From positions 1-40,482 of IMG/VR virus record IMGVR_UViG_3300045988_118718: a stretch of DNA of 40,482 nt. One strand, 5' to 3'. The position numbers and the translations under genes are program-made. Shown piece after piece: positions 15,004 through 33,500 of the stretch (the stretch's first letter is position 1; each line of letters begins with the position of its first letter). This stretch comes from a virus. The notes beneath the pieces were generated by a model. It had not been told where the DNA came from, searched no databases, and saw nothing but the letters and a program-made list of their open reading frames with translations.

Positions 15004-15029
15004 ATATTTAGTGAAAGGAGATAAATTAC

Positions 15030-15242: not shown

Positions 15243-16348
15243 CATAAATAATGTTGGATTAAACAGTATTTTATAAGTACAGAGAAACGAGGTACTTATA
15301 TGTTGATGAATACTAGTTCTGATTTTTTAGTCCCTTCCATTGATGAAAAACTTTGCGCTTATCAAAAAGATCGTATTTCTCAAATGATCCGTGATTATCT
15401 GGAAATCAATCAACAGATGGATCACTTTCATTTCGAATACTGTCCTAAATGTGGTCAACATCATCCCATGCTCGTAAAAGCGGGTAAAACCAAGGCTGGT
15501 AAACAGATGTTGAAATGTAATTCCTGTAAAAAACGCTTTGTATGTGATCATGGTCAGTTGACTTACTATTCTCATCAACCGCAGTCAAAATGGAACGATC
15601 TGATCATCGAAACGCAGAATGGAAATTCGCTGCTTCATACAGCTGCTAAAATCGATGTACATGAATCCACTGCTTTTCGTATGCGTCACAAATATCTTCA
15701 TTTCATTGAAGATATGGAGTGTCCCATATGTGCTACATCATGAAATCGAAATGGATGAAACGTATGTGACACATTGCCGTAAAGGCCGTTTTATCAAAGA
15801 TCATCCCGGCAAGAAGCGGGGTACCCGTGCTTCCAGGGCCGGTTTGTCCGATGAGAAAGTGTGCATAATAACAGCAGTGCAACGCCTGGGAAAATGTATT
15901 GCACGTTCGCTGAATGTATCGAAACCTTCTATAAAAAATGTAGAAGACTTTTGTCAATCCGTTGCCAATAAAAGCTACGTCTGGACAGATGGACTGCAAA
16001 GTTATACAAAGGTCCTCTGTGAAAAGAAATGCACCAACAAAGTTTTGAATACCTACAGTAAATACGATGCAGTCAATCATCTGAACAATGTCAATTCATT
16101 CCATTCAATGATCAAGGAGCAGTATCGGTTTTACCGGGGAGTGTCCAGCAAATACATCAACCGATATAATGCTCTGTTTACATTACAGAAGGAATATCAG
16201 GGAATGGACTCACAAGAATTCCTGTTACTGATTATGAAAAGATTGAGAGGACAAGTTAGTTACTTTTTTATTCGTCAAATACGAAAAGTAGATCTTTTTA
16301 AATTTGCGATTACTTAAAAGGCTATGTCAACAAATTGGAGATTAAGCG
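15216..16348 (+). mobile_element. IS1595-family (ISXO2-like) insertion sequence, 1133 bp
   Basis: 22-bp terminal inverted repeats match at 20 of 22 positions: cgcttaaccttcaatttgttga at 15216..15237 versus the reverse complement of 16327..16348. It is flanked by an 8-bp TSD. It encodes a zinc-ribbon plus DDE (ISXO2-like) transposase. Confidence 0.85.
15300..16317 (+). pseudogene. IS1595-family transposase, interrupted by one frameshift near 15715..15735
   Basis: ORF 15300..15743 carries the zinc ribbon CPKCG…CNSCKKRF and the HTH-like TAFRMRHKY. The +1 frame from about 15730 continues with EIEMDETYV…, the first DDE Asp region. A single indel explains the split. Confidence 0.8.
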
Positions 16349-16872
16349 TTTTAAAAAGTATTGAATCAATTCAGAAAGTAAACACTGATGCAATATCTTT
16401 AGCAGCCAAACAATCTATCCAAAACAATTTAGAAACAGTAATTAAAGCGAATGTAATCAATAGCAAAGTTTTTTTGGATTCATATGTTGATAACATGATT
16501 GCTTACGCTGCCAATAATGTTGTTGATCAATTGGAAAATATCAAAAGCGATGAAGTTGAAGAAAGTACAACAGCCCAAAATCTTCAACCAGTAAAGAAAC
16601 ATACACATTGGACAAGAGGTGATGTTCTTTCGCTGATATCCATAATTCTTTCTTTAATCATGTTTGTGCTTCCTAACAATAATGATCAAAACATTACGAT
16701 AGAAAACATCGAAGTAAATATCATAAATTCAGAAGATAACGTTGGTAATCCACCAAACAAACTAATTGAAAGTGTTTCTTCATTGATTCAGATAATAGAT
16801 GATATTGATCCAGAACTACTTCATCAATCTATTGATGAAGTTAAAGAGGACTATCAAGAAAACAGCAATTGA
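16324..16872 (+). pseudogene. 3' fragment of the split accessory gene; could still be expressed from an ATG inside the IS right end
   Basis: ATG 16324 lies inside the right inverted repeat and is in frame with the host-gene remainder. The protein has one TM helix (VLSLISIILSLIMFVL) and an acidic C-terminus. Confidence 0.7.
16349..16356. repeat. target site duplication TTTTAAAA (right copy)
   Basis: Identical to 15208..15215. Confidence 0.75.
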
Positions 16873-16893
16873 TAAAAGATTTATACTTCTTTT

Positions 16894-16930
16894 AAGACTT
16901 TGAACTCGCACTTCAAGGTCTTTTATTTTT
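16894..16930 (+). terminator. rho-independent terminator
   Basis: 11-bp stem AAGACTTTGAA/TTCAAGGTCTT with one G-U pair, followed by TTATTTTTT. Confidence 0.7.
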
Positions 16931-17009
16931 TCTTTATCATCCATCTCACACCTCTTTCTATGTCTGTTCCTTCCCGTTGTATAATGACTTTTGTTTCACC
17001 TTTTAGCTT

Positions 17010-17207
17010 TTAAAAATCTTCAAATAGATAATCAATAGTAAATTCTGGAAAAACTTTACGTTTTATCAGCAGCATTGCTTTCAAGTTAATATTCGTTGTT
17101 CCTGACAAGTAATTAAGTAATGTCTTATACTCAATTCCCACTTCCTCAGAAAGTTCCTTCTTTGACATTCCTTTTCTAGAAAGCTCTGCCTCTAAATTTC
17201 TAAACAC
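17010..17207 (-). CDS. Cro-like XRE-family HTH regulator
   Basis: 65 aa with a GTG start 7 nt after AGGAGG. The HTH is MSKKELSEEVGIEYKTLLNYLSG. It is divergent from the repressor gene. Confidence 0.8.
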   Translation of the reverse strand: MFRNLEAELSRKGMSKKELSEEVGIEYKTLLNYLSGTTNINLKAMLLIKRKVFPEFTIDYLFEDF

Positions 17208-17223
17208 TTCAGCACCTCCTTTG

Positions 17224-17313
17224 TTACCCCGCGAGGTAATTACATGTACATAATATACGCTGTAGGGTAATATGTCAATGCGAAAGAATAATTATTTTTA
17301 CTTTGCGGGGTAT
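17224..17313. promoter_or_regulatory. three 16-bp operator-like sites in the switch region
   Basis: TTACCCCGCGAGGTAA (17224..17239), the reverse complement of 17255..17270 (TTACCCTACAGCGTAT) and the reverse complement of 17298..17313 (ATACCCCGCAAAGTAA). Confidence 0.6.
17250..17278 (-). promoter_or_regulatory. early lytic promoter candidate (TTGACA-17-TATTAT)
   Basis: Minus-strand TTGACA at 17278..17273 and TATTAT at 17255..17250. An operator-like site lies in the spacer. Confidence 0.6.
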
Positions 17314-17321
17314 TTTCTTTC

Positions 17322-17349
17322 TTTACAACGTAATAAAATAGGTTATAAT
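17322..17349 (+). promoter_or_regulatory. repressor promoter candidate (TTTACA-16-TATAAT)
   Basis: TTTACA at 17322..17327 and TATAAT at 17344..17349, upstream of the SD AAAGGTGA and ATG 17371. Confidence 0.55.
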
Positions 17350-17370
17350 CTAGGTATAAAGGTGATTGCT

Positions 17371-17775
17371 ATGTTAAAAGACAAACTACTAGAACTAATG
17401 GAAGAAAAAGGTATAAATAAATCGGAGCTATCAAAAGGAGCGGATATTCCTTATACGACTATAGATGGGCTATTTAAAAAGAACTCTGAAAATATAAAAC
17501 TGCCAACTTTGAAAAAGTTAGCAGCGTACTTTAATTGTTCGATGGACTATTTGGCTGATGATGAATCTTATAAAAAGTCCCAATGGGGCAATGATGCAGC
17601 CAACCGGGAATATTTAGCAGATAAGCCAGAATTACTAGAAATATATGATCAGCTGGTAAATAGAGATGATATGGTTATTCTTTTTGACAAAACCAAAGAT
17701 CTCGAACCTAAAGATGTGGAGTCCGTACTGATGTTTGTACAAACAATTCGTAAGCAACGTGGTTTAGATGATTAG
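17371..17775 (+). CDS. cI/ImmR-like XRE-family repressor
   Basis: The HTH is INKSELSKGADIPYTTIDGLF. I chose the internal ATG 17371, which has an SD, over the track start 17272, which lies in the promoter region. There is no S24 peptidase domain, consistent with ImmA-dependent control. Confidence 0.8.
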   Translation: MLKDKLLELMEEKGINKSELSKGADIPYTTIDGLFKKNSENIKLPTLKKLAAYFNCSMDYLADDESYKKSQWGNDAANREYLADKPELLEIYDQLVNRDDMVILFDKTKDLEPKDVESVLMFVQTIRKQRGLDD

Positions 17776-18109
17776 TGACACGAATGATGTCATTATACGC
17801 ACTATGATATCATCGGGTGATTTTATGAGTTTTGAAGACTTCTGTGCACAGAATAATATAGTGGTTACTTATTATTCTTTCTCAACCAAGGTGCGGGGTT
17901 GCTGTATGAAGATAGATGATTACTATCTTGTGGCAATCAACCCTAGATTTTCAAATAATTCAATGAAGCGAACTCTCATTCATGAGATCACGCATATTAT
18001 GCAGGATCATCTGCTATGCGATCAGAGCGAATATGAGAAATGTGAAGAAGAAATAGACAGAATTATTAGTAACATGAAAAAATTAAAGTTTAACCAATTA
18101 ACATTATAA
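17768..18109 (+). CDS. ImmA/IrrE-family metallopeptidase (anti-repressor protease)
   Basis: HEITHIMQDH is a HEXXH motif. The gene overlaps the repressor stop, the typical ImmR-ImmA pairing. Confidence 0.8.
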   Translation: MISDTNDVIIRTMISSGDFMSFEDFCAQNNIVVTYYSFSTKVRGCCMKIDDYYLVAINPRFSNNSMKRTLIHEITHIMQDHLLCDQSEYEKCEEEIDRIISNMKKLKFNQLTL

Positions 18110-18120
18110 GGAGGAAGTAC

Positions 18121-18963
18121 ATGCCAAAAAGTATTTTTGATTTAGAAGTTAGATTAGACTTTGATAAAGAGTATAAAAGAATCATGGAAATTATTGATAG
18201 CCCTATATTTTCCACTTCATATCAAAGCGGTTTTTCTTTCTATGAAATAATAAACAGTATTTTTCAATTTTGGCCATATCGTCGCACTGCTAGAACTATA
18301 GATGAATATTTTGAACTTAAAAATTTAAGATTTGGTAATTTTTCATCATCTAAAGAGGAAAAACTATACGATCTTCAGTTTGTATTTGATTTTATTTGCT
18401 GGATATATAACCCAAATCGTAAAATGTCAGAAATGTATGGTTCAATAAGAATTGAATCAATCATAAAAGACTGTTTTGAAAGCAATAGACATTATTTTGT
18501 ATTGATTACAGATAACATTGAAGAAATAATAGAAAGCTTAAATATGGAAATCCAAACAATAAACGACCATATTACTTTTATTAAACGTAATGCTGACGTT
18601 GATAGCGTTCTAACACAATTAGAAGAAGAACCCGATATTCGTTTATTACTTCTTTCTTATAATGATTTCAGAGTAGAAAATAGTTTGGAAGATAAGCAAT
18701 ATATTATCAGAAAACTAGCTGATTGGCTTGAACCTCAAAGGAAGAAATATAGCTCTATTAACTCTAACCTGACAAAAGATATATTTAATGCCATAAACAA
18801 TGGAAATGTCCGACACAACAATATCAAACAATGGAGTTTCAAAACTGATGAAGATCAGTTAAAAATGTACGATAAGATATTCAAAATGATTCTTCATCTT
18901 ATACGAGAAGAAGATGTAAAAAAAATACGTGAGGAAATCAAGATATTAAATGCAAACCATTAA
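18121..18963 (+). CDS. hypothetical 280-aa protein; candidate prophage-encoded defence or exclusion gene
   Basis: Visibly AT-rich ORF with a GGAGGAAG SD, placed between immA and int. I recognised no motif. Confidence 0.7.
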   Translation: MPKSIFDLEVRLDFDKEYKRIMEIIDSPIFSTSYQSGFSFYEIINSIFQFWPYRRTARTIDEYFELKNLRFGNFSSSKEEKLYDLQFVFDFICWIYNPNRKMSEMYGSIRIESIIKDCFESNRHYFVLITDNIEEIIESLNMEIQTINDHITFIKRNADVDSVLTQLEEEPDIRLLLLSYNDFRVENSLEDKQYIIRKLADWLEPQRKKYSSINSNLTKDIFNAINNGNVRHNNIKQWSFKTDEDQLKMYDKIFKMILHLIREEDVKKIREEIKILNANH

Positions 18964-19013
18964 CATATTGTTCTGTCCATGCTATTGTGTTAATGAATAA
19001 CGATTAAATATAT

Positions 19014-19046
19014 AAAAAATCCACCGATGCTACCAACATCAGTGGA
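19014..19046 (-). terminator. hairpin with a T-run on the minus strand
   Basis: Stem TCCACCGATG/CATCAGTGGA with one mismatch. On the minus strand it is followed by TTTTTT. Confidence 0.4.
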
Positions 19047-19160
19047 TCGATAAGGGTACTACCAATACCCAGTACATAAAAAGAATGCTCGGCAAGCATA
19101 TTCCTTTTTATGTACCTATCTTAACAAAATTACACCAAAAAAGAAAGGATGGGTACGATT

Positions 19161-20294
19161 ATGTCGGTATTCAAAGATGGAAATTCATGGGCTTATAAAG
19201 GAAAGATCGCTATTCCTTTTGAACCTGGAAAATATAAAAGTTATTACAAAAGAGGATTTTCTAAAAAGAAAGATGCGCAAAGAGCAGAACAATTATTTAG
19301 AGATAATTTTTCTACACATCAGAAAGATATTACTTTCGACGAATTAGTAAATCTATATCGTGCCAACTATCGGACACAGAATGTGAAAGAATCAACTTTA
19401 ATTGGTGATGAAAGCTATTATAGATTGCATATTCAGCCAGTTTTAGGCAAATATCCATTAAGTCAAGTTACTACACAAGCTATTGATTTATGGAAATCCT
19501 ATATGATCAAAAAGCCTAAAACAGAAAGAAAAAAGAATAAAAATGAATATTATTCTACCGCTACAATAAATCATGCTAAAAGTGTGATTAGTAAATACTT
19601 ATCATATGCAGTAAGGCTCGGTTTCATATCTTATAACCCGTGTCATAATGTACCAAGTTATCAAAACAAGGAAGAACTTAAAGAAAAACAAGAAATAAAA
19701 TTCTGGGAAGTCAACGAGTTTAAAACATTTATAGCATCTGTAGATGAAAAACGCTGGAACGATATTTTTACATTTTTATTCTTTACAGGATTACGTGAAT
19801 CAGAAATGTTTGCTTTGTCATGGAGAGACGTCGATTTTCAAAAATGTACTTTGAGAATCAATAAGTCTATTACCTATAAGACAAAAGCGGCTCCCTGGAA
19901 AATAACGACACCTAAGAATGAAAACTCCATTAGGATTATTGATTTGCAGGATACTTTATTAGATCGATTAAAAAATCGTTTAGAAAAAGAAAAACATAAA
20001 GACGGATTCACGCTTGATTATTTTATATTTGGAGATATTAAACCCGTGTCTCGATCTGACTTGGCGCGTAAAATGGATTATTTCATACAGTTATCAGGGG
20101 TTTCACGAATCACACCCCACGGTCTTCGCCATAGTCACGCTTCCTTTTTGATCAAAAGCAAAATTGACGATTCTTTAATTGCTGAAAGATTAGGACATAC
20201 CGTAGCAGAGCTAAGAAAAACTTATGCACATATATATGATTCTATGAGACAAGACATGAAAAGAATATTGGATGAAACATGTAAAATTGAATAA
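19161..20294 (+). CDS. int: tyrosine integrase
   Basis: The C-terminal catalytic motifs are …GLRESE…, HGLRHSHASFLI and LGHTVAELRKTYAHIY. ATG 19161 is preferred because ATG 19149 lies inside the SD AAGGATGG. Confidence 0.9.
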   Translation: MSVFKDGNSWAYKGKIAIPFEPGKYKSYYKRGFSKKKDAQRAEQLFRDNFSTHQKDITFDELVNLYRANYRTQNVKESTLIGDESYYRLHIQPVLGKYPLSQVTTQAIDLWKSYMIKKPKTERKKNKNEYYSTATINHAKSVISKYLSYAVRLGFISYNPCHNVPSYQNKEELKEKQEIKFWEVNEFKTFIASVDEKRWNDIFTFLFFTGLRESEMFALSWRDVDFQKCTLRINKSITYKTKAAPWKITTPKNENSIRIIDLQDTLLDRLKNRLEKEKHKDGFTLDYFIFGDIKPVSRSDLARKMDYFIQLSGVSRITPHGLRHSHASFLIKSKIDDSLIAERLGHTVAELRKTYAHIYDSMRQDMKRILDETCKIE

Positions 20295-20297
20295 AAT

Positions 20298-20324
20298 TCG
20301 CAAATTTTCGCAATTTTTTCGCAA
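20298..20324 (+). repeat. three tandem TCGCAAWTTTT repeats; candidate arm-type integrase binding sites
   Basis: TCGCAA occurs at 20298, 20308 and 20319. Further copies (TCGTAA 20499, TCGCAA 20510) lie on the other side of the putative core. Confidence 0.5.
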
Positions 20325-21244: not shown

Positions 21245-22235
21245 CAGATGCCAAAATGTTTATCAACCGCTGTGCCTCGTTGTAGTCAACTCCTAAGCGT
21301 TGTGCTTCGGCTTGCCGAGTTGCTCCTGTTCCGTGCTTGCCCTCGTTCCATACTTCAAGAGCAAATTGACGTGCAGACATAGTAGATCCGGTAGATCCAG
21401 CACCAAGTAAAGCGTTGACTCTAGCCTGTACCGCATTGTAGTTGTAACCTGCAGATGTTAATCGATTGATACGGTCCTGTCCGTTTCCCCATGATCCGGC
21501 GATTACTTCCTTGGCGATCTGATCAATGGATTTTTGTGGAGTTGTACTTGTTCCGACTCCTAACTGTCGATTAACCTCGGCTTGTACCTCAGCATAGTTA
21601 TATCCGGCAGCTTCCAGCTTAGCTTGACGTTCAGCACCATTACCATATTTGCCGGCAATGACATCTCTTGCAACGTCAGCTATAGATTTTGATGGTTGAC
21701 TAGGTTGAGTTGTGCCTCCACTTGGTGCTTGCCCACCATTGACCATCTGGTCATACCATTGCTGCGCTCTCTGGATATATGCATCTTTTTGCGAGCCATA
21801 GATCTGTCCAGGGCAGGCAGTAGCGGCAAAATATTTATGCGGAAATACATTGACCAGCCACTGCGGACGGCCTAATCCAAAATGTTTACAAAGCGCAGCA
21901 ACAAGATGTGCTCCGGCATCTAGGCAAGCCTCTGTGATTGTACCATCTGGTTGATTGGCGTGCTCAATACCAATGGATGTGCAGTTTGCTTCCCAGTTGC
22001 TAGCATGCCATGCTGTATCGCTATCCCATACAAGCTGTCCAGTACGCCCACTCGACTCTACTTGATATTGTGCTGACGCTTCACGTGTTTGCCAAACATT
22101 GTAACATTGTTCGACCGTCAGATCACCTGCGTTATAATGCACAACGAGCATCTTTACTTTTTTACCTGCTCTACCAGGTGTAAAGTGTTTATCTAAAATA
22201 TAGTTAACATCGGCATCTAAAGTTTCATAGTTCAT
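21231..22235 (-). CDS. endolysin: N-acetylmuramoyl-L-alanine amidase (Amidase_2/PGRP) with three CW_7 cell-wall-binding repeats
   Basis: The N-terminal MLVVHYNAG…IGIEHAN motif and three repeats of the type G(K/S)(Y/W)GNG..R...L..AGY.Y..VQ..VN..LG. Confidence 0.9.
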   Translation of the reverse strand: MNYETLDADVNYILDKHFTPGRAGKKVKMLVVHYNAGDLTVEQCYNVWQTREASAQYQVESSGRTGQLVWDSDTAWHASNWEANCTSIGIEHANQPDGTITEACLDAGAHLVAALCKHFGLGRPQWLVNVFPHKYFAATACPGQIYGSQKDAYIQRAQQWYDQMVNGGQAPSGGTTQPSQPSKSIADVARDVIAGKYGNGAERQAKLEAAGYNYAEVQAEVNRQLGVGTSTTPQKSIDQIAKEVIAGSWGNGQDRINRLTSAGYNYNAVQARVNALLGAGSTGSTMSARQFALEVWNEGKHGTGATRQAEAQRLGVDYNEAQRLINILASGGSI

Positions 22236-22339
22236 TATTCTTCCTCCTTATCTTCTTTTGGCGCATCAGCACCTTTTCCCATTGCGTTCAATTCCTCTTC
22301 CATTTCCGGTGTAATTACTACGTCTAAACTTTCTGGCAT
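22235..22339 (-). CDS. small acidic ORF (34 aa), below the ORF-track cutoff
   Basis: GGAGGAAAACAAA precedes the ATG. The stop overlaps the endolysin start (TAATG). Confidence 0.35.
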   Translation of the reverse strand: MPESLDVVITPEMEEELNAMGKGADAPKEDKEEE

Positions 22340-22351
22340 TTTGTTTTCCTC

Positions 22352-22678
22352 CTATTCTCGAATCGGCAGCTCTTTTAACTCAAGCGCCATCTTCTTCACT
22401 TTTCCATTCCCACCAAGATCCTCATAAGCTTCGGCCATTTCAATTAGATTTTCGTATCCGTGTGGTGTTATTTCCCCACGCTCGATATAGCGGTCATGAT
22501 AATCGATGATTTGTTGCCTCAAAAGACATCGAGTTCCTTTTCGATTGGCTTGTTTTTCAATCTCTTCTCGTTCATCACGCACTTTGGCTTGTTTCCGTAT
22601 ATTTTTTAGCAGCCATACAATGTAACCGCACATGGCGGTTACTATGGATACCACAACCTGGGTAAATAAATCTTCCAT
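22352..22678 (-). CDS. membrane protein of the lysis cassette (holin/antiholin-like, one N-terminal TM)
   Basis: TM helix VVVSIVTAMCGYIVWLL followed by a charged tail. Lies between the holin and the endolysin. Confidence 0.55.
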   Translation of the reverse strand: MEDLFTQVVVSIVTAMCGYIVWLLKNIRKQAKVRDEREEIEKQANRKGTRCLLRQQIIDYHDRYIERGEITPHGYENLIEMAEAYEDLGGNGKVKKMALELKELPIRE

Positions 22679-22679
22679 T

Positions 22680-23018
22680 TTATTCCTCTACAGATGCATT
22701 AAAGCCACCGTTAAATCCATTAACAGCGGCTTCAATTAAAGTTTCTAATTCGGTTGTCGTTACAGTTATTCCTGCATTCGTGAGTAATTCCGATGCTCTG
22801 TCTAAAGCTTTCTGCAGCTTCTCTTCTCCGTGGATATCTTTATAGACCTGTTCGACATATTCTACAGTACTGTTCACAATGTCATACTTGGTTTGATTAT
22901 CCACATACTTATTATATGCTTTTTTGATCTGATATCCTACGACACCAGCCACACACATTAGTACAGTTCCTGCCAGTTGTAAGACCGCCGGCATGATTGT
23001 TTCAATGATTTGTTCCAT
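22680..23018 (-). CDS. holin (LL-H-like)
   Basis: 112 aa with N-terminal TM AVLQLAGTVLMCVAGVVGY and a soluble helical C-terminus. SD is AAAGGAGG. Confidence 0.6.
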   Translation of the reverse strand: MEQIIETIMPAVLQLAGTVLMCVAGVVGYQIKKAYNKYVDNQTKYDIVNSTVEYVEQVYKDIHGEEKLQKALDRASELLTNAGITVTTTELETLIEAAVNGFNGGFNASVEE

Positions 23019-23028
23019 AGATCCTCCT

Positions 23029-23376
23029 TTATTCTATAGTTGCTGTAATTGATGCTAAAAAAGTAACTTCACTTCCATATTTTGGAAAATTAAATATCAG
23101 TTCTTTTCCTCTAATAATCATACTTCCACCAGTAACCACCAAACTAGTTCCTACAAAACCTGTAATTACCGCAATACTTCTTGGATGATAGTATGGTAGT
23201 AATTCACTGAATTCATAGCGATTTCCACCAGAAGAACTTACTGTAATTTCTAGCATATAAGTTACAACATTACCATTTCTTGAATAATCGACTTTCCCTT
23301 TATCTGTTCCAACAGTAAAGTGAAATGTTCCTGTTTCACTTTTCAATTGATTACCATGTCTGTCTATTAGTTGCAT
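23029..23376 (-). CDS. tip cassette 5: paralogous small beta-rich protein (115 aa)
   Basis: N-terminus MQLIDRHGN. No SD. The start codon sits in the loop of a 9-bp hairpin ATTAGTTGC/GCAACTAAT. Confidence 0.65.
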   Translation of the reverse strand: MQLIDRHGNQLKSETGTFHFTVGTDKGKVDYSRNGNVVTYMLEITVSSSGGNRYEFSELLPYYHPRSIAVITGFVGTSLVVTGGSMIIRGKELIFNFPKYGSEVTFLASITATIE

Positions 23377-23397
23377 AAAATCGCAACTAATCTGCTA

Positions 23398-23772
23398 TCA
23401 ACTTCTTTTCGCTACATACATATAATTGATATAGAATACATTCATATATCCACTAAATCCGCTTCCAATATCAACAACTAGATTGTTACCATATACATTG
23501 GCTTTAACGTCACCACTTCCATTACCGGGATATCCGATTGGATAATAATAATTTGGTTGTCCTGTTTTTGCACACCACAAGCAAGAACATGGATGAATGA
23601 AGAAATAATCAAACCCACCTGCACCTATGTTAACTTCCTTGTGCAAACTAGTACCCATATCAATTTGTATATGCTTCATTAAGATAGGTCTACCATCAAC
23701 CCATCTCATGCCTGTATCTTGTTCATTTTGCGAAAAATTCATAACTGCATTTCCAAAACGATCAGTGAACAT
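23398..23772 (-). CDS. tip cassette 4: receptor-binding-head-like protein (124 aa)
   Basis: MFTDRFGN…NEQDTGMRWVDGRPI…, clearly paralogous to cassette 2 along its full length. No SD. Confidence 0.7.
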   Translation of the reverse strand: MFTDRFGNAVMNFSQNEQDTGMRWVDGRPILMKHIQIDMGTSLHKEVNIGAGGFDYFFIHPCSCLWCAKTGQPNYYYPIGYPGNGSGDVKANVYGNNLVVDIGSGFSGYMNVFYINYMYVAKRS

Positions 23773-23791
23773 AAATTCACTAGATAGTGTC

Positions 23792-24091
23792 TTAATGCTT
23801 GTCTAATACGATATATCTAACTTCTAATCCTTGACCTGATACAAAGCTAGTTCCATAAACATTTATTGTTAGAGTAGAACCACTTACAGTTCCTACTACG
23901 TTTACTGGTTGGAAATATGGAGTTCCTGACCTTCCCCATACATTACCTAAAAATATAGCCGTTCCTGTCGGCGCTTTAGGCAATGTTACAGTTCCTGTCA
24001 TAGTATTTCCTTCACTTTGTCTTACAACTAACGTTCCTGTAGCTATTACATCAAAGTCATATAGACTGCTTCCATATCTATCGACTAGCAT
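23792..24091 (-). CDS. tip cassette 3: paralogous small beta-rich protein (99 aa)
   Basis: N-terminus MLVDRYGS, preceded by structured leader B. Confidence 0.7.
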   Translation of the reverse strand: MLVDRYGSSLYDFDVIATGTLVVRQSEGNTMTGTVTLPKAPTGTAIFLGNVWGRSGTPYFQPVNVVGTVSGSTLTINVYGTSFVSGQGLEVRYIVLDKH

Positions 24092-24236
24092 ATTCTCACG
24101 TGGACACTATCTAGCAGTCCACCTTCTTTCAAGTTTGAAGAGTACAAGCAGATTAGTAAATGCTTGCCCCCCCCCGTTTGTTTTGAAGAGTTTTTTCATA
24201 GAGATTGCATATCTCTAATTTTGCACAATGCTTTTC
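24092..24236 (-). promoter_or_regulatory. structured leader B: hairpin, short ORF, G9 tract, hairpin HP1, SD-like box in hairpin HP2
   Basis: On the minus strand: AGAGAT/ATCTCT hairpin (24200..24216); ATG at 24199; G9 (24167..24175); HP1 CAAGCA-N10-TGCTTG (24145..24166); GAAAGAAGGTGG (24119..24130); HP2 GTGGAC-N11-GTCCAC (24100..24122); cassette ATG at 24091. Homologous to leader A. Confidence 0.6.
24167..24175 (-). repeat. homopolymer G9 (C9 on the plus strand)
   Basis: Counted directly. One of only two such tracts that I saw in the window. Confidence 0.95.
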
Positions 24237-24608
24237 TTAGTTCTTCTTGACGTAAAGATAGTAGATATAAAAGACGTTATACCAACCTGAAAAGTTACTT
24301 GCGAGAGATACCTCTAAATTATTGTTATGGATCAAAGCATTAATCTCTTTGCCATAATTCACAGGATAGAAATAATGGTCTGCTCCTACTGAATAACTTT
24401 GTGTGCTCCACAAGCAACTATAAGGGTCAATCCAAACAAAATCATAATCATTGGCTCCAATATCTACAGAACCTTGCAAATTTGTATTTGATAAATCAAT
24501 TCTTTTATAATTTCTATAGATTGGTCTTCCGTCTTGCCATTTTAAACCTGTATCTTGTTCGCCTGTTTCAAACTGTTGAAAAGCGTTTCCAAATCTATCT
24601 ACTAGCAT
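24237..24608 (-). CDS. tip cassette 2: receptor-binding-head-like protein (123 aa)
   Basis: MLVDRFGN…GEQDTGLKWQDGRPIY…. No SD in the 19-nt gap after cassette 1. Confidence 0.7.
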   Translation of the reverse strand: MLVDRFGNAFQQFETGEQDTGLKWQDGRPIYRNYKRIDLSNTNLQGSVDIGANDYDFVWIDPYSCLWSTQSYSVGADHYFYPVNYGKEINALIHNNNLEVSLASNFSGWYNVFYIYYLYVKKN

Positions 24609-24627
24609 AATTGCTAGACAAGGGATG

Positions 24628-25011
24628 TTAGTCTGTCGTTTTGGTATATCTCAAAGTAACAACAAAAGTAACTGGCATTGCGGTTGGCATTGATCCACGA
24701 ATCGCTAAGCCATTTACTTTATTAACGTATGAGGCTTTCCAATCACTTGTGGAAAGATACATATTAACACTTTGATATCCCTCTGAATCGCCTCTGTAAT
24801 AAGCGTATGAATTTGATTCGTCTACCCATATATGACCTGCATTACTTATGCCCAAACTAGATAAACTTTTATTTACACTTATTGTTTTGGAGTTTACTTC
24901 CACCGAAACAGTCTTTGTATAAATAGGTTTTTCGTTTATCCAAAATTCGCCTGTTTCTTGTTCGGTTTCAGATAGGCTTTGAAAAATGTTTCCGTAACGA
25001 TCAACTAACAT
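24628..25011 (-). CDS. tip cassette 1: receptor-binding-head-like protein (127 aa)
   Basis: MLVDRYGN…TEQETGEFWINEKPIY…, preceded by structured leader A. Confidence 0.7.
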   Translation of the reverse strand: MLVDRYGNIFQSLSETEQETGEFWINEKPIYTKTVSVEVNSKTISVNKSLSSLGISNAGHIWVDESNSYAYYRGDSEGYQSVNMYLSTSDWKASYVNKVNGLAIRGSMPTAMPVTFVVTLRYTKTTD

Positions 25012-25123
25012 CTAATCTGGTGTACCTTGCCTAGAAGTACACCACCTTTCTGATAGAGTGTGCAAAAATTAGATAATGCACACCCCCCCCCGATTCAAAA
25101 ATTGAATTTTCATAAGTTCCTCC
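25012..25123 (-). promoter_or_regulatory. structured leader A: strong SD, short ORF, G9 tract, hairpin HP1, SD-like box in hairpin HP2
   Basis: On the minus strand: AAGGAGG (25119..25125); ATG at 25113; G9 (25083..25091); HP1 GTGTGCA-N12-TGCACAC (25058..25083); AGAAAGGTGGTG (25040..25051); HP2 TGGTGTAC-N11-GTACACCA (25018..25044); cassette ATG at 25011. Confidence 0.6.
25083..25091 (-). repeat. homopolymer G9 (C9 on the plus strand)
   Basis: Counted directly. Confidence 0.95.
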
Positions 25124-25630
25124 TTACTGCCAATACACGGCTTCTTTTAAACTTTTTACAGGCTCTGCTACTCGTGTAACACTTGTGATGCTTGTACCTG
25201 TAAATCGAACTTGATATAAAGCAAATTCATCTGTAGTTGCACCTGCCGAGATATCTCCACTAGTTACGCTTGGAGCTACAGGTGTACCCGATGTGGAAGT
25301 TCCTTTTTTTACTGCCAGCGCCATACTTTCAACTTTGGTTGATGTGCTTTTGGTGTAACGACAAACAATCAAATCAATTCGATTCTGACCGCTTACTCCT
25401 GCGCTAAAAGTCACGTTTTCGGTTGTACCTTTTTTAATTCCTCCAAGCGCTCCTTTTTGGATCAAATCACCATCGGCAATACGGACGGTAGTGTTGTTTA
25501 CTACCGTAGCCGCTAACTTCTGACCTGTTCCTAGTACCACCGAATCGCTACCAAAGATACCTCTAATCAATCTACGTTCTTTTTCAGACGTTAAATGAGG
25601 TGTCCCCCTGTACCCTGTGATGATCTCCAT
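25124..25630 (-). CDS. tail fibre/baseplate-associated protein (BppU-N-like fold suspected)
   Basis: 168-aa ORF. Its N-terminal half resembles that of ORF 28008..28631 in pattern (…RIDLIVCRY… versus …RYDYVAIRY…). It is the last gene before the cassette array. Confidence 0.5.
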   Translation of the reverse strand: MEIITGYRGTPHLTSEKERRLIRGIFGSDSVVLGTGQKLAATVVNNTTVRIADGDLIQKGALGGIKKGTTENVTFSAGVSGQNRIDLIVCRYTKSTSTKVESMALAVKKGTSTSGTPVAPSVTSGDISAGATTDEFALYQVRFTGTSITSVTRVAEPVKSLKEAVYWQ

Positions 25631-26298
25631 TAGGCATCAACTTCTTTCCACGGCGCACCGACTGCACCCGGTTCCCAAACGTTGTTATCGGCAGTGGATT
25701 CCCAAGTTTTGCCATTGTGAGTCACCTTATCACCTGTCTTATACCCGTTGGTAGATCCTGGTTGTTCCCATTCTCCAATTTCGCCAGATTGTCCAGGCAA
25801 AACTTTTGCCCACAAGCTTGGTGCATCTGCAGGTGTCCAATCAGCCTGCGCATCATGCGCTTGTAAACATTTGTACAATGTACCGTTATAGGTTACACGT
25901 TCGTCCTTTTCGTAATGCTTAGAGTCGCTCCAAATATCAAACAAGTTCGGTACTAGCACTGCAGTTTCATCGTCCACAGTTCGCGCTTGGATCTTCGCCA
26001 ATGTTATAGCATCGGCATAAGCCTGTGTCTGCGCTTCGGGAGTTTCAGTTGGTTTATACATATTGATTCCGTAGATTTGACCTGTATAAACTTCTAAACT
26101 GTACAACTCCGTGTATCCTTCAACGACTGTTTCTGACTCATTATCATCAACAAATGTCATTTTGCGTGTCTTTAAAGGATCTTTAAAATGTTCTTTGAAT
26201 GTTTCGGGTGTTTCCAAAGTTCGAATATTCAAACGATTATCCTCAAATCCAAAGCATTGGATCGTCATTTCTGACAAATCGTTAAAAATTAGTTTCAT
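25630..26298 (-). CDS. tail-associated protein with two CBM5/12-type carbohydrate-binding motifs
   Basis: YEKDERVTYNGTLYKCLQAHDAQADWTPADAPSLWAKV and YKTGDKVTHNGKTWESTADNNVWEPGAVGAPWKEV fit the W/Y..GD.V.Y.G..Y.C…W.P…LW pattern. Confidence 0.65.
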   Translation of the reverse strand: MKLIFNDLSEMTIQCFGFEDNRLNIRTLETPETFKEHFKDPLKTRKMTFVDDNESETVVEGYTELYSLEVYTGQIYGINMYKPTETPEAQTQAYADAITLAKIQARTVDDETAVLVPNLFDIWSDSKHYEKDERVTYNGTLYKCLQAHDAQADWTPADAPSLWAKVLPGQSGEIGEWEQPGSTNGYKTGDKVTHNGKTWESTADNNVWEPGAVGAPWKEVDA

Positions 26299-26306
26299 AA
26301 GTCCTC

Positions 26307-26672
26307 CTATTCTTTTACATAGTCACCATACGTATCAGTTGTACTGATCGTGCCCCATGTAGCAGTACCGCTACTACCGCCATACTTTAGTACCTGTCCA
26401 TTTGATCCACCGCTAGGAATGTGCTTATTGCCTGCGGAAGTTGGGTGCGTATATACAGTGTCGGTAAACTTAGCGTTGCTCGGTACATCATCATTGACTG
26501 TGTGCCCGTTGACCGTATCGGCATCACCACCATTGGCAGGGAGCGAACTAGGAAAATCAGTAATCTGTGATTTCGTATGGCTATGATTCTTTGCAGCAAA
26601 GTTGCTTTTGACCTTGGTATATAACTTTGATAAAGCATAAGATAGCCTTACAAGGGATAAATACTTAAACAT
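26307..26672 (-). CDS. tail fibre protein segment
   Basis: NHSHTKSQITDFPSSLPANGGDADTVNGHT is a common fibre motif. Confidence 0.6.
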   Translation of the reverse strand: MFKYLSLVRLSYALSKLYTKVKSNFAAKNHSHTKSQITDFPSSLPANGGDADTVNGHTVNDDVPSNAKFTDTVYTHPTSAGNKHIPSGGSNGQVLKYGGSSGTATWGTISTTDTYGDYVKE

Positions 26673-28011: not shown

Positions 28012-28631
28012 TCCTTCAGATAGTCATGCATGCTTGTCTTGATTTCGTCAATCTGAAGCTGCAGATTAGCTCCGATATCACCGCTCATCTGATCTTTGAT
28101 CTTATCAAAAAAGGCTGTCCACTGATCCTGGAATCCCTGTGTAGGAATCTTCGATAAAGTATCCACCGTCAATCCACAGAATGTTTCATCCATGCGGACA
28201 TCCATGATATTGTCTTGAGTGATCTCCCCTGCGCTCGCCGGTACAATTACGATTGCCAAGATCAAATCATACTGCGTTTGATTTCGAGTCGGAGCCGATG
28301 GCATTTCGGCTGTACCTTTGACATACACGACCTGTACCTGATTGCTGGACTGTGTGTAGCGGATAGCTACATAGTCATAGCGAGTATAGTATTCAGCCAC
28401 AGGAGCCACCAGGCTAACATCCTGGCGAGGGCAGAAGATTAAACCACCCATTTCATCCTCTTTGGTATGCGTAAAAGCCACACCATTTTTTACAGTTAAA
28501 TTCATTCCAGAGTTTGCCTGTACTTGGAAGTCATTGCCTGTAACATTTAAAATACCGGGTGTTCGCCCGGCATGAAAAAGGCGCATATCCTGCGCCAAGT
28601 AATACGTATCATCTAATGGGAAAGCTGTCAT
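28008..28631 (-). CDS. baseplate/tail structural protein
   Basis: 207-aa ORF coupled to its neighbours by ATGA-type overlaps. Confidence 0.5.
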   Translation of the reverse strand: MTAFPLDDTYYLAQDMRLFHAGRTPGILNVTGNDFQVQANSGMNLTVKNGVAFTHTKEDEMGGLIFCPRQDVSLVAPVAEYYTRYDYVAIRYTQSSNQVQVVYVKGTAEMPSAPTRNQTQYDLILAIVIVPASAGEITQDNIMDVRMDETFCGLTVDTLSKIPTQGFQDQWTAFFDKIKDQMSGDIGANLQLQIDEIKTSMHDYLKE

Positions 28632-29710
28632 GCAGTCACCCCTTTCTTAGCGGATGCTTCCTCCGCATATAGTGTCAATTCTATTTCAATAGTTTCCACA
28701 CCGTCTTCCTCGATCTCATTGATTCCGGATATTCGATACAGTGTGTTCTGAATATTGTATTTGACCGATTCAACCTTTACAATGTCGCCCAAATCATAAT
28801 CAATTCGGAAGCGGAACAAAGGATCGTTTGGATCTACTGTCACCGAGAATTTAACCACTGCTGAATGTTCGGCCAGGGCTTCCAATCCTTCATTACGTAA
28901 GACATTCTGATATTCCTCGTCCGTGTACGTCTGCTCATTGCCGGATTCATCAGTGTACTTTTTAGACGTATTCCGTGAATCCACATACAGCTCATATCGT
29001 TCACCACCATTGGATAAATCGACTTCCACCACGGTTCGTTCTTCGCCTTCCCCCTGTGCACAGACATAGGCAAAATTTTTATAATCCGATAGATCTCTTT
29101 CAACCGATTGAAACGTAATATTTGATAACTTGTCACTGAATTTCACATTTCGTTTTTTGCCACTGTACATTCCAAACTGATTTAAGGCTCCTGGAGATTT
29201 CCCGGCCAACTTATCAGCCAACATTCGGTATCCCAGTCCTGTTTGCTCACAGACAAGCTGCACGGTATCTCTGAGTGTTTCCCATGTAGATTCCATATCC
29301 AGTCCTGTAACCTGAAGTCCCTGTGGATCTGGTGCAAAATAGATATCCAAATTTCGCTGGTTGAATTGTATGCAATCCATAACATCACTTTCTACATTTG
29401 TACCAAAATGCCAGGTGCGAATATTGATACGTTGATCAAGATTATCCATATAGCCGCGGATTTCGATATCGCCCTGCGCTTCATCCTCCGATTCCTCATC
29501 GTGGAAAAAAGACACAAATCCGATTTCCTGTGTAGCCTGGTTTACAAACCTTGTAACACCTTCCTTGATGTTGGCCAGGTTCTCTTTGGTCGGTCGTACA
29601 TGGATCTCAAATTGTCCAGGTTCGGCATATTTCCTTTTCCATTGGATTGACGTATAGTTCTGAAGAATTCCTATTCGCTTACCCTGATCATCAAAAATCA
29701 TCATCTGCAT
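28628..29710 (-). CDS. tail-associated (Tal-like, Sipho_Gp37-like) protein
   Basis: 360 aa directly after Dit. The N-terminus MQMMIFDDQGKRIGILQNYTSIQWKRKYAEPGQFEIHV matches the Gp37-like family as I remember it. Confidence 0.65.
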   Translation of the reverse strand: MQMMIFDDQGKRIGILQNYTSIQWKRKYAEPGQFEIHVRPTKENLANIKEGVTRFVNQATQEIGFVSFFHDEESEDEAQGDIEIRGYMDNLDQRINIRTWHFGTNVESDVMDCIQFNQRNLDIYFAPDPQGLQVTGLDMESTWETLRDTVQLVCEQTGLGYRMLADKLAGKSPGALNQFGMYSGKKRNVKFSDKLSNITFQSVERDLSDYKNFAYVCAQGEGEERTVVEVDLSNGGERYELYVDSRNTSKKYTDESGNEQTYTDEEYQNVLRNEGLEALAEHSAVVKFSVTVDPNDPLFRFRIDYDLGDIVKVESVKYNIQNTLYRISGINEIEEDGVETIEIELTLYAEEASAKKGVTA

Positions 29711-29713
29711 AAG

Positions 29714-30577
29714 CTAAACTCCCGCATACGTGATTGCATATTCGATATCCAATTCCAGACTGTCTAACCCAGAATCCGCATCAAAGCGCAATGGATTTTC
29801 CCCGACATCCAGTTGAAAGAAGGAGGCATCAAAGTCCATATCCGGAAAGGCGTTGATTTCTTCACCATCTCGAATCAGATAACAGTAACAATCGTTAGGA
29901 ATCGTGGAAATCACAAGCTCATCATCGATCTGCATCGTCAACGAAGAAAACTTTAAAACCTCTTGTGTAACGACTTTCAGAAGTTCCGGACCTACCACGG
30001 TATCCTTGGCCACGAATCGAGCCACAAATCCAATCGGTACTGATCCGGAATTGATGATCGTACTCAACTGGTTGATCACTTTCTCCGATATTTTCCATTG
30101 TTCCGTACTGGAAAACGTGTAGGGGAATTTGAACCTTGCCTCATAGCTTACGAAGTTTAGGTATCCTCCATCGATGGCCTTCCAGTAAGGGAAAGCACAG
30201 AACATCGTAAATTGAAAGCTTTGCCAGTATGGATTGGTTGACATATCCGGAGTTTGAGTTGGTACGCCTTCCAGATACACATCAATACCGGCCTGATCAT
30301 CGATGTATCGAATACGAGCCGATACTGTAGGAAGAATGGTATCCAAGATCTTACGGCGTACCGTTGGATCATAACGATATCTACCTTCAAACGTTACGCT
30401 TTTCGGCTGCACTTTTTGACCAGTCAAAGATGCACCAATCTGTCCGGTAGACTGTGCAGAGGATACATCAATATCATTGCTGGATAGACCGTCAATCTGT
30501 ACCAAACGAATCCCTGTCTTCTTGGAGAATTCAACGGTTTGTCCATTCGCGTTTTCATAGATTACTGTTATCCCCAT
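29714..30577 (-). CDS. distal tail protein (Dit)
   Basis: 287 aa immediately after the tape measure, with the typical N-terminal beta-sandwich start (ITVIYENANGQTVEF…). Confidence 0.7.
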   Translation of the reverse strand: MGITVIYENANGQTVEFSKKTGIRLVQIDGLSSNDIDVSSAQSTGQIGASLTGQKVQPKSVTFEGRYRYDPTVRRKILDTILPTVSARIRYIDDQAGIDVYLEGVPTQTPDMSTNPYWQSFQFTMFCAFPYWKAIDGGYLNFVSYEARFKFPYTFSSTEQWKISEKVINQLSTIINSGSVPIGFVARFVAKDTVVGPELLKVVTQEVLKFSSLTMQIDDELVISTIPNDCYCYLIRDGEEINAFPDMDFDASFFQLDVGENPLRFDADSGLDSLELDIEYAITYAGV

Positions 30578-33500
30578 TTCTGCCTCCTTTGCATTTTCTG
30601 TGCTTCTCTTGCCATTTCAGACGGCCTCAATACTTTGGCACTGTTGACCGTTTGTTGGAAGTTATTGGTCGTCTGATTGACAACCGATGACCCAGCACCG
30701 GCATACTGTAGATTGTTGCTTAATACGCGACCTGCAGTATTCGAACTGATGATATCCTGCATCTTGGTCTTTAGGCCTTTTACACGGGATACTATTTTTG
30801 ATTCTGCTTTTAGCATGGCAGCCGTAAAGCTATCAGTCATGACTCTAGGTAATCCGCTCATTGTATCTTCCATCGTCTGATACATCGCATGACCCATATC
30901 ATCTACAGTATATTTTGCCGCCATGACCGGTAGATTTGCATTGTCTAAAATACCTTTCTCAAGGCCAGCCATTGCCCACATACCGTTTTCTGTTGTGGTT
31001 TTCCACGGTGATCCTTCACCGCCGGTTTCACGTATTTTGGCCAACGTTTGATTTACTACATTGGCTGCTGCTGTCAATGCTAAGCCAACACCACCAGAAA
31101 TGCCTCGTGCAAAACCAGCTGTAAGGTTATAACCAGAGTCATAAGCATTGCCACTGCCTAAGCCACTGACTGCAGTATTACTAACTTGTGTAGCACTTGT
31201 TTTAACAGCAGGTTCTCCTTCTTTTATACCTTTGCCAAGACTTTCAGAATTCTTTTTACCCTGTTGTTTTAATTCTGATTCTGCTTCAGCGCCTTCAATC
31301 ATGAGCTGCTTAATTTGTTCAATAGCATCAGCCGGCAAAATAGATCCATCAGATACACCTTGTGCCAAATCGGCCGGTACTTCTATACCAGCCTCTTCCG
31401 CTTTGGCCAACAAGTCATTGAATGTCATGATATCGGTCATCATCTGTACTGCCTGTTGTGGCTGATATTGACCACTCAGAATTCCATTAGATAGCCATTG
31501 TGGTACCTGTTGACCGGCGGCAGAGGATTCCTTCAGCAAATCATTAAAAGAGATCCATGCATTCATCTGTGCAACTGCCTGGCTTGGTAATAATTCACCT
31601 GTTTTAATTCCTTCAGTAATTGATTCAGGCACATTATATCCGGCATCTGTAGCCTGTTGACGTAAAGTGTCATAATTGACTAATGCTGTCATTTCTTCCA
31701 CTGATTCCGGTAAAGCGTATTGCCCTTCCTGGATTCCCTGTGTAATGGCTTCCGGGACCTCCACACCGGCTGCACGTGCGCCTTCGACTAACTCATTCAT
31801 CTTCTGTTTGAGCGTTTCGGTATCAAGAGCCTCATTGATTTTATCGCCCCAGGCATCCATCTCATCGGTCAGCCCATTCACTTCGTCTTGATAATCCGAT
31901 AACGTGTCTTTGGACTCTTTTAATGTTTGGTCAGCACCTTGAACATTTAATCTCGCTTTATCCAAAGCATTTGCTAATTCATTTTGGTTCGATGCATTTT
32001 CTTTTACTGCTTTGTTGTAAGCTTCCTGCGCCTCGTTAAGCTCCTTATGAGCCTTCTCTGAAGCTTTGGCATTTGTAGCTACTTGGTCTTCGGCATCTGC
32101 TAGATCCATTTGTGCTTGTGCTAAATCTTCGGCTGTTGATATCATATTTTCCTGATAAGCTTTGGCCATGATCATATCTTTCGAAGCTGATATATAGTTT
32201 CGTATCTCTTGTGTAGACATACTTAACTTATTCGCTTCTTCGTCATACTGTAGATTCAATCCCGGCATCAGCTCATTCAGTTTATCTACATATCCTGTCA
32301 TCAATTGTTTTTCTGCATTTGATAGCTGTTCTTTATTAGCCAATTCTTCTATTTTGGATGCCATTGTCTCGGCCACTGCCGATTCCGCTTGTGCGCTTTC
32401 TATGTTAGCCTCACGAGTTTCTCGGTTTTGTTCCATTTGCTCTCGCAGTTCTTCATATTTTTGGCGCATCTCTTCTGTGGCTACTGCATTTTCATCTTCT
32501 GCTTTTGCAGTTTCAATCAGATTTCCCACATAAGATACTAAAGCAATTCCTGCACCGGCGATCAATCCTGCCAACAAGCCCCATGCAGATCCCTTTTGAG
32601 CAATATTCAAAGCCTTTTGCGCAGTCTCTGCAGCTTTCGTTCCTTTTGTAAACACCGTAAGGGCTGCATTTGCTGTTTTGGTTGCTGCAGCTCCTAACAG
32701 AGCGGATGATTTATACATGATAAATGCAGTACCGGCACCTTTCATAACCGAAGTTAGTTCTTCGCCATGATCGATGCAGAACTGCAAGGCATCCACCACC
32801 GTATCCATTGCATCTTCAGCTGTTTTGCCAAATCCATCCCAGTCAACTTCTTTGATCATATCCTGCATGGCTCCGGATGCTTTATCCACTGCCGGTTTTA
32901 AAGCATTCAAAGCATTTGCTTTCAGATCATTCATTTCCGTCTTTAATGGGGTAACGGAACTTGCTAGATTGGCCTGCGCATCTTTCAAACGCAGTTCGGA
33001 TGCATTCAAATCTAAAGTACTTTGTGATAGTTCATCATACGTCTGTTTGGATTGACCAAACGTCTGATTCAATGTCTGTGCAATCAGATCCGCACGCTCC
33101 TGTGTGTCGGCACATGCCGCCAATGCAGCGCTGTAGGCATCTTCCTGTGTTTCTCCATCAGCAATCGCTTTATTAAAAGCTTTCTGCGCCTCTGTGTGTC
33201 CTGCCATAGCTGCCGACCAATCTTCGTTAGACCGTCTGGCCCAGTTGATGGCATCGGCCAAAGTACCTGTTACATGTGCAACCTGTGCCGATTCGTTCAT
33301 CGATTCGGTCAAAGATTCAATCGGAATACTATCACCATAAGCCGACCATACACCAATGGCAGCACTTGCAGATGCACTAACGGTATCGGTAGATACCTTC
33401 ATACCTAGTAAGTTTGTAATAGCGTTGGTCGCCATCTGATCATCACCTAAGTATTTATAAAATTCCTGATACTGCCCTTTGGCATAGTCCACAGAGTATC

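Follow-up and report, generated by a model that had tools for sequence, protein, structure and literature searches.

A length-variable G tract in structured, putatively translated leaders of a candidate fibre-head cassette array in uncultured human-gut phages

The 40.5-kb IMG/VR record IMGVR_UViG_3300045988_118718 (analysed whole and called the window here; coordinates are window positions unless a contig is named) carries on its minus strand five small open reading frames (ORFs), which we call cassettes 1–5, and a 112-nucleotide (nt) leader, leader A, in front of the first of them. Leader A combines a strong Shine-Dalgarno (SD) sequence, a short ORF, a run of nine G's and two hairpins, and a paralogous leader, leader B, lies before cassette 3. 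That each leader is structured and holds a hypermutable tract is well supported, and we take the leaders to be translated, and the finding is conserved in a clade of uncultured human-gut phages. The further claim, that tract length gates the cassettes by setting where leader ribosomes stop, is one towards which we lean slightly. Leader A is laid out as follows.

25012..25123, minus strand: leader A spacer, 112 nt, with SD, short ORF, G9, hairpin 1, SD-like box and hairpin 2
25069..25113, minus strand: leader ORF A as assembled, 14 codons and a TAA in loop 1 (frame analysis)
25083..25091, minus strand: G9 tract A, starting after 22 nt of the leader ORF, its G's in codons 8–11
25055..25087, minus strand: hairpin 1 including its extension, with a 7-bp core stem GTGTGCA/TGCACAC at 25083..25077 and 25064..25058
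25040..25051, minus strand: SD-like box AGAAAGGTGGTG, 28 nt before the cassette 1 ATG, its 3' half forming the 5' arm of hairpin 2
25018..25044, minus strand: hairpin 2, 8-bp stem TGGTGTAC/GTACACCA at 25044..25037 and 25025..25018
25005..25011, minus strand: ATGTTAG, the cassette 1 start overlapped by the leader stop of the G8 frame (frame analysis)

The leader SD, AAGGAGG at 25125..25119, overlaps the stop of the upstream ORF (TAA, 25126..25124) and leaves a 5-nt gap to the leader ATG at 25113..25111; its pairing with the anti-SD is worth −11.8 kcal/mol. Hairpin 1 has the loop TTATCTAATTTT, which holds the TAA, and its stem is lengthened by tract G's that pair with CUCU. Hairpin 2 has the loop TTCTAGGCAAG and is followed by GATTAG and then by the cassette 1 ATG at 25011. 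Both inverted repeats are 100% complementary. An earlier note on this DNA had described these elements, and on re-reading of the minus strand all of its sequence details were correct, including the effect of tract length: G9 gives a 14-codon ORF that ends at the TAA of loop 1, and G8 gives 35 codons that end at the TAG of ATGTTAG. Its remark that the genome is AT-rich holds only in a moderate sense, the measured G+C content being about 42%. The two G9 runs of the window compare with 0.10 expected from shuffles, are its sole G/C runs of at least 6 on either strand, and occupy homologous positions in the two paralogous leaders.

24092..24236, minus strand: leader B, a paralogue that aligns with leader A over its whole length
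24107..24199, minus strand: leader ORF B, 30 amino acids (aa) as assembled, without an SD
24167..24175, minus strand: G9 tract B, homologous to tract A

Leader B consists of a hairpin with a mini-ORF, the leader ORF, G9, hairpin 1, the box GAAAGAAGGTGG and hairpin 2. Its 5' hairpin, AGAGAT-ATGCA-ATCTCT, presents in the loop an ATG that opens a four-codon mini-ORF, MQSL, whose TGA overlaps the leader ORF B start as ATGA. The second loop, CTAGATAG, supplies a TAG in both of the frames that do not lead to the cassette.

We gathered 26 leader copies, 17 of them unique, from related contigs (labelled L001–L024; leaders classed as A type or B type). All related contigs with leaders come from human-gut metagenomes or viromes. 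They were reached by homology to the 168-aa protein encoded directly upstream of leader A (L003–L009), by a look-up of cassette 2 (L023, L024) or by a DNA pattern (L013–L015, L018–L022). The tract is uninterrupted in each of the 26 copies and spans G6–G11, with G8 or G9 for tract A (12 relatives) and G6, G8, G9, G10 or G11 for tract B. Loci found by homology, and hence without reference to the G run, have uninterrupted tracts in both leaders, and the tracts are kept at homologous sites across phages that have diverged to 70–96% protein identity. Relatives that keep the cassettes and lack the tract, which the earlier note had named as grounds against its proposal, were not found among the relatives examined; L010, the only closer relative whose gene is fused, lacks the leader and the cassettes alike.

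Variation of tract length at the DNA level, as proposed in that note, is borne out as the sole difference between otherwise identical, independently assembled contigs. L013 and L014 align over 5604 nt without a mismatch, and their two one-base gaps are the two tracts. L014 and L015 align over 4955 nt, again without a mismatch, with the sole gap at tract B, and L004/L005 carry G9 at tract B where L006 carries G8. L011 and L012 show no mismatch over 7007 nt and differ solely in another G9/G8 run. Both G9 tracts of the window reach the length, about 7 nt or more, from which a homopolymer is slip-prone, and lengths differ among otherwise identical genomes in the pairs L013/L014, L014/L015 and L011/L012; we are confident that the tract is hypermutable. 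Slippage in DNA is favoured over transcriptional slippage because the length differences sit in assembled DNA.

The run that separates L011 from L012 (L011 9689..9697, L012 6920..6927) lies inside a 56-aa ORF downstream of the fibre locus. These two contigs belong to a more distant clade, which is 46% identical in the constant part and carries inverted cassettes together with a shufflon-like recombinase. In four independent assemblies, the contig breaks off within hairpin 2 of leader A or at most 21 nt from the cassette 1 start (the ends of L003, L019 and L021 and the start of L024), which could reflect mixed tract lengths, a drop in coverage at the G run, or a leader common to co-occurring phages.

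What a change of tract length would alter is the point at which the leader ORF ends. In all 17 unique leaders, the three frames close at three places: a TAA in loop 1 at −58 to −67 relative to the cassette ATG, a TAG in loop 2 at −18 to −22, and a stop at +4. In leader A of the window, the first two lie 60 nt and 22 nt from the ATG. The +4 stop is built with four codon pairs (ATGTTAG, ATGCTAG, ATGCTGA and ATGCTAA) and shares its phase with the canonical ATGA overlap. The tract itself sits in a separate ORF of 14–37 codons, and the cassette frame is closed just upstream of the cassette in every leader, by a TAG that lies at −3 in type A and at −18 in type B, which rules out any fusion of leader and cassette. 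Because different frames read across hairpin 1, the peptide of the long frame is not conserved from variant to variant. What appears to be kept is openness and not a product, and if anything is selected it would be the passage of ribosomes. As assembled in the window, leader ORF A stops in loop 1 and leader ORF B in loop 2. The geometry of termination and reinitiation seen in the earlier note is upheld in that a stop overlaps the start in every variant and the cassettes are SD-less, and is qualified in that the as-assembled leader A is in the −60 frame.

Downstream of the leaders, the cassettes form a chain that ends at the holin gene.

24628..25011, minus strand: cassette 1, 127 aa, beginning MLVDRYGN, no SD (ORF and SD scoring)
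24237..24608, minus strand: cassette 2, 123 aa, no SD, start codon in a small hairpin loop 22 nt past the cassette 1 stop
23792..24091, minus strand: cassette 3, 99 aa, no SD (ORF and SD scoring)
23398..23772, minus strand: cassette 4, 124 aa, no SD, start codon in a hairpin loop
23029..23376, minus strand: cassette 5, 115 aa, no SD, start codon in a hairpin loop
22680..23018, minus strand: holin, the next gene after cassette 5, with a strong SD (AGGAGG)

For most genes of this phage whose ATG start is clear, the SD:anti-SD energy is about −9 to −13 kcal/mol. The values for cassettes 1–5 and leader ORF B run from +1.3 to −5.8 kcal/mol, and the minus strand from 25011 to 23029 is a 2.1-kb stretch of five genes with no SD. 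At the junctions between cassettes, the next ATG follows the stop at a distance of 22–24 nt. Cassettes 2, 4 and 5 have their start codons in the loops of small hairpins whose 3' arm is formed by codons 2–3, and the arms vary from junction to junction yet stay complementary (CTAGC/GCTAG, AGTGAA/TTCACT and TTAGTTGC/GCAACTAA). Read from sequence, these junctions have the anatomy of translational coupling, and the small hairpins around the starts would block independent initiation.

The mechanism that we propose would run as follows. Ribosomes would load at the strong SD of leader ORF A. The G run would change length by slipped-strand mispairing during DNA replication and so set the frame of the leader ORF, which would place the stop at the TAA of loop 1, at the TAG of loop 2 or 4 nt inside the cassette (ATGTTAG). 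With the +4 stop, ribosomes would melt hairpin 2 and arrive on the cassette start. With the loop-2 stop, hairpin 2 would also be melted, leaving a gap of about 20 nt like that at the cassette junctions, where reinitiation must be possible. With the loop-1 stop, hairpin 2 would stay intact and ribosomes would end 60 nt short of the start. Leader ribosomes would be handed over to the cassette start by termination and reinitiation; since that start has no normally placed SD, how far the leader ribosomes travel would decide both the opening of hairpin 2 and the handover. The level of cassette 1 would be set by the leader, cassette 2 would be coupled to cassette 1, and leader B would gate cassettes 3–5 in the same manner.

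The spacing of the loop-2 stop (18–22 nt) is close to that of the cassette junctions (22–24 nt), and therefore the loop-2 state may also reinitiate, which makes a three-level switch likelier than an ON/OFF switch. Expression would thus probably take three levels, highest with the +4 stop, intermediate with the loop-2 stop, and lowest, or dependent on the SD-like box alone, with the loop-1 stop. Translation of the leader ORF, dependence of the cassettes on it and the ranking of the three states are what we infer from the layout of the sequence.

The hairpins appear to be maintained as RNA. In an alignment of the 17 unique leaders both hairpins form the consensus structure, and five base pairs have changed on both sides. 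One such compensatory change falls within the A type, where TGTGCA/TGCACA has become TGCGCA/TGCGCA in L013. The one-sided changes in the stems turn G-C into G-U on the sense strand only and therefore fit an RNA rather than a DNA structure. Fold z-scores are −2.7 and −2.5. Invariant across the alignment are CTAAT in loop 1, CTAG in loop 2 and AAGGTGG in the box. The succession of box, stem-loop, 6–8 nt and ATG is kept in both A and B types, with a spacing like that of a split ribosome-binding site. In all ten variants that were folded, three to six tract G's pair with CUCU or CUCC just past hairpin 1 to make a long lower stem. No match was found in Rfam for positions 22000..26000 with E up to 1, a promoter scan gave no signal above background, and no terminator-like sites occur in 22000..26500, there being no U run after either stem.

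A further complementarity was noted in leader A, where ATCTAAT of loop 1 (25068..25074) is complementary at 7 of 7 positions to ATTAGAT (25010..25016), a stretch made up of the five bases immediately ahead of cassette 1 and the AT of its ATG. A-type leaders retain this complementarity, with a G-U pair in L007, and B-type leaders do so inconsistently. Such pairing could act over a long range to hide the cassette 1 start.

The leader ORF start is retained in four upstream gene contexts. Three unrelated genes stand directly before a leader ATG that has an SD-like sequence ahead of it: the 168-aa N-domain protein, a CBM_5_12 protein in L013, and a GLMS..DK..LD fibre protein in L021/L022 that ends in ...DKSRLDQLWAKFDSMVFFT(N/E)D. 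The SD is strong in the N-domain and L013 contexts and is a weaker AAAGGA in L021/L022. Leader A with its cassette array lies at 4813..4929 in L013, 1065..1169 in L021 and 168..285 in L022. Because the array follows three unrelated genes, it behaves like a module open to exchange. Ahead of tract B, indels come in multiples of 3, which gives 18, 24 or 27 nt. The exact leader peptides expected for G5–G12 are all missing from the protein collection, even the 30-aa product of leader ORF B; such small ORFs are therefore not called there.

Several observations weigh against the gating of the cassettes by the tract, or weaken the case for it. L023 and L024 are 100% identical to the window, G9/G9 included, so that in that lineage at least the length of the tract is inherited stably; the 'low' G9/G9 state, with its loop-1 and loop-2 stops, is the common one. 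Counted by lineage, consensus states number about 7 at +4, about 10 at loop 2 and about 6 at loop 1, and the lack of a preferred state fits a freely switching locus and equally a neutral one. An open frame of 23 codons has an estimated chance of about 0.2 per leader and is only modestly unlikely; once the few indels that leave the pattern intact are counted in, the joint probability is estimated at roughly 0.05, which makes the statistical support for a designed open frame modest, suggestive and not decisive. Since tract G's pair with CUCU, part of the tract may be kept for structure. Finally, the conserved GAAAGG box by hairpin 2 could drive initiation of the cassette alone, in which case the frame would matter less.

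These last points lead to the rival account that we take most seriously, although we think it unlikely: a constitutive split ribosome-binding site with a neutral tract. Discontinuous ribosome-binding sites are known from T4 genes 38 and 25, and here hairpin 2 would fold out 23–27 nt and bring the single-stranded GAAAGG to 6–8 nt from the ATG, so that the cassettes would be translated independently of the leader ORF. The G run would persist chiefly because it supplies the 5' side of the lower stem below hairpin 1, and changes in its length would be tolerated. The geometry common to A and B types, the lower-stem pairing in every folded variant, the occurrence of all three frames as consensus and the reproducible G9/G9 all suit it. 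However, that pairing needs only three to six G's and would tolerate interruptions, whereas the tract is always unbroken at 6–11; an upstream SD with ATG and a stop that overlaps the start are left unexplained, as is the absence of the box at cassettes 2, 4 and 5. Alternatively, the leader might be a linker at a module boundary, conserved as DNA for swaps of cassette arrays by homologous recombination, with the hairpins and tract secondary. Leader A is indeed nearly identical beside three different upstream genes and different cassettes, and four contigs (L003, L019, L021 and L024) break inside or just after it, but an SD, an ATG, a G run and fixed stops would be superfluous in a linker, and selection on RNA structure is indicated by the compensatory changes in the stems and by the G-U pairs on the sense strand. 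We give this account little credence as the explanation of the leader, and a linker role can co-exist with gating by the tract.

Two other accounts concern the G run itself. Programmed recoding, by slippage of RNA polymerase or by ribosomal slippage or peptidyl-tRNA-Gly hopping at the run, would yield a fixed ratio of frames whatever the DNA length. It would explain why any DNA length is tolerated, and a slippery G GGG GGG does stand directly before a 10–14-bp stem. As a −1 frameshift signal, the site has the heptamer and the structure, but its spacer is only 0–2 nt, against the 5–9 nt typical of such signals, and the length differences in DNA are real. G/C runs are also poorer templates for transcriptional slippage than A/T runs, which counts against this account, and we consider it improbable. 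The length differences might instead be homopolymer errors of sequencing or assembly in a biologically invariable tract. Although G runs of 8–11 are error-prone and several contigs break at the leader, identical G9/G9 recurs in two further assemblies, lengths span 6 to 11, and tracts are conserved at homologous sites in phages as diverged as those described above; an explanation by error is very hard to credit. Set beside these accounts, gating of the cassettes through the length of a translated tract is the reading that we retain.

Other candidate explanations were tried and rejected. A tract acting as promoter spacer (−35 TTGAAT, −10 TCTAAT) fits leader A loosely and leader B not at all, with the scan at background, and an intrinsic terminator is ruled out for either hairpin for want of a U-tract. 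Fusion of the 168-aa protein to a cassette by readthrough or frameshifting has no frame path, and L013 and L021/L022 have another upstream gene. Stop-codon reassignment was dropped, the ORFs reading normally with table 11. An integron-like attC site has neither a core-site match nor an IntI, and bypassing of the T4 gene 60 kind, in which ribosomes would hop from Gly codons in the tract onto GGU GGN in the box, is inconsistent across leader variants.

The surroundings of the array suggest what the cassettes encode. The window genome is a temperate siphovirus-like phage. Its minus-strand tail module comprises a tape measure gene (30568..33942), a Dit-like gene (29714..30577) and Sipho_Gp37 (28628..29710), followed by fibre-like genes, the CBM_5_12 protein, the 168-aa ORF, the leaders and the five small ORFs; the lysis genes come next (holin, an amidase with CW_7 repeats, and CHAP).

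25124..25630, minus strand: the 168-aa ORF, the constant N-terminal part of a fibre or receptor-binding protein as a separate gene (PHROG matches and homologues)

The 168-aa protein matches residues 1–163 of PHROG profiles about 300 positions long. Its distant homologues (36–45% identity) are single proteins of 255–293 aa, and its close homologues (68–96% identity) are all 168–173 aa. The cassettes occupy the site where the distant relatives carry the variable C-terminal part of the receptor-binding protein. Because of this position and homology, we read the cassettes as putative stand-alone, variable fibre-head domains and the 168-aa protein as the likely constant part.

All five cassettes (99–127 aa) open with MLVDR(Y/F)GN or a close variant and are dissimilar beyond it. 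An AlphaFold2 model of cassette 2 is a ten-strand beta-sandwich (predicted local distance difference test score 88.8) behind a poorly defined N-terminal helix, and homologues of cassette 2 at 50–54% identity carry the same domain behind a Phage_fiber_rpt N-terminus, not behind MLVDRFGN. All five cassettes are taken to be small beta-sandwich proteins. Cassettes 1–5 have no match in Pfam or PHROGs. For cassette 2, a search against PDB sequences returned nothing meaningful, and a Foldseek search of its model against the PDB found no significant hit, the best TM-score being 0.41 with a weak likeness to viral fibre heads. No match was obtained with cassette 1 against phages by tblastn, or with the 5-kb region against phage records by megablast.

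The cassettes all lie on the minus strand, and the sole recombinase in the window is a 381-aa integrase (19149..20294) with an arm-binding domain. This tyrosine integrase ends a block of low G+C content (28–36%) on the opposite strand, at 15000..20300 (plus strand); with an integrase of that kind at its end, the block is presumably the lysogeny module. As for the host, no GTDB genome carries the element in a protein scan or a DNA-pattern scan, and tblastn with the lysin and the capsid protein found only distant matches in mixed hosts.

If the leaders gate the cassettes, a temperate gut phage would possess a compact, enzyme-free means of diversifying host recognition. Such a case would be without precedent outside Campylobacter phages, and it would be the first to work through a leader ORF and translational coupling and not by way of the receptor-binding gene. 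Functionally different subpopulations would be hidden in the consensus assemblies of these phages, and the host range of these uncultured phages is predicted to be unreadable from a single genome sequence. Tentatively, and as a possibility that we would sooner doubt than assert, a recombinase-free translational relay may replace in these phages the invertase-driven shufflon of their distant relatives, two independently mutable tracts with three states each controlling how ribosomes pass along the SD-less genes and giving progeny with different mixes of the five heads on a separately encoded constant anchor.

The nearest parallel in regulatory logic is the pil1 pilus locus of Streptococcus gallolyticus, where the number of repeats in a leader ORF sets the ribosome stop relative to a hairpin, the repeat being the pentanucleotide GCAGA and the hairpin an intrinsic transcription terminator, and where expression of surface-structure genes is heterogeneous in a Gram-positive setting (Danne et al. 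2014, PMC3894217). In both systems, a slippage-prone repeat in a short upstream ORF moves the stop of that ORF relative to a downstream hairpin. Here, in contrast, the repeat is a G homopolymer, the hairpins are two, lack a U-tract and have a stop in each loop, a stop overlaps the start of an SD-less gene, and the element is phage-encoded with two copies per array. Since the hairpins are not terminators and a stop overlaps an SD-less start, control would act on translation, through reinitiation.

Phage-encoded tracts are found in Campylobacter phages, whose receptor-binding protein genes carry hypermutable polyG tracts, as cited in PMC12823448. The likeness lies in phage-encoded G homopolymers at a host-recognition locus and in subpopulations that differ in receptor binding, which in our case are predicted. 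In the Campylobacter phages, as Sorensen et al. reportedly described (2021, Cell Rep 35:109214), the tracts lie inside coding genes and switch between full-length and truncated products. In the present phages, the tract instead sits in a separate leader ORF that is unable to fuse to the cassette, the host is probably a human-gut Gram-positive bacterium, and the targets are five small stand-alone head cassettes.

In architecture, the locus resembles the Rin shufflon of Bifidobacterium prophages, in which a constant N-terminal receptor-binding part is accompanied by variable C-terminal cassettes and a tyrosine invertase (Mavrich et al. 2018, PMC6109161), a system related to Min, Gin and Cin. Both place several mutually dissimilar variable cassettes after a constant N-terminal part, and the 168-aa protein is 32–34% identical to the constant part in relatives. 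Of the relatives inspected, ctl617 (L002) and L012 have a fused gene followed by inverted, opposite-strand small-ORF cassettes and a tyrosine recombinase, and phiCs5676-1 (L001) has a fused gene followed by opposite-strand small ORFs with an IS200-type transposase among them. Unlike these, the window has no invertase, its cassettes are on the same strand and each is a complete ORF, and its constant part ends in a stop codon; the choice of cassette would be made by translation level and not by DNA inversion. One homologous locus would then have two solutions according to lineage, DNA inversion and homopolymer slippage.

Finally, the handover that we propose resembles termination-reinitiation of the ATGA/TAATG kind, in that the downstream genes are SD-less and the stop either overlaps the start in ATGA phase or lies about 20 nt before it. 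It differs in that the part of the upstream 'gene' is played by a leader ORF that is not conserved and whose stop moves with the mutable tract. The element is a candidate form of homopolymer phase variation that lies outside the pil1, Campylobacter polyG and Rin systems.

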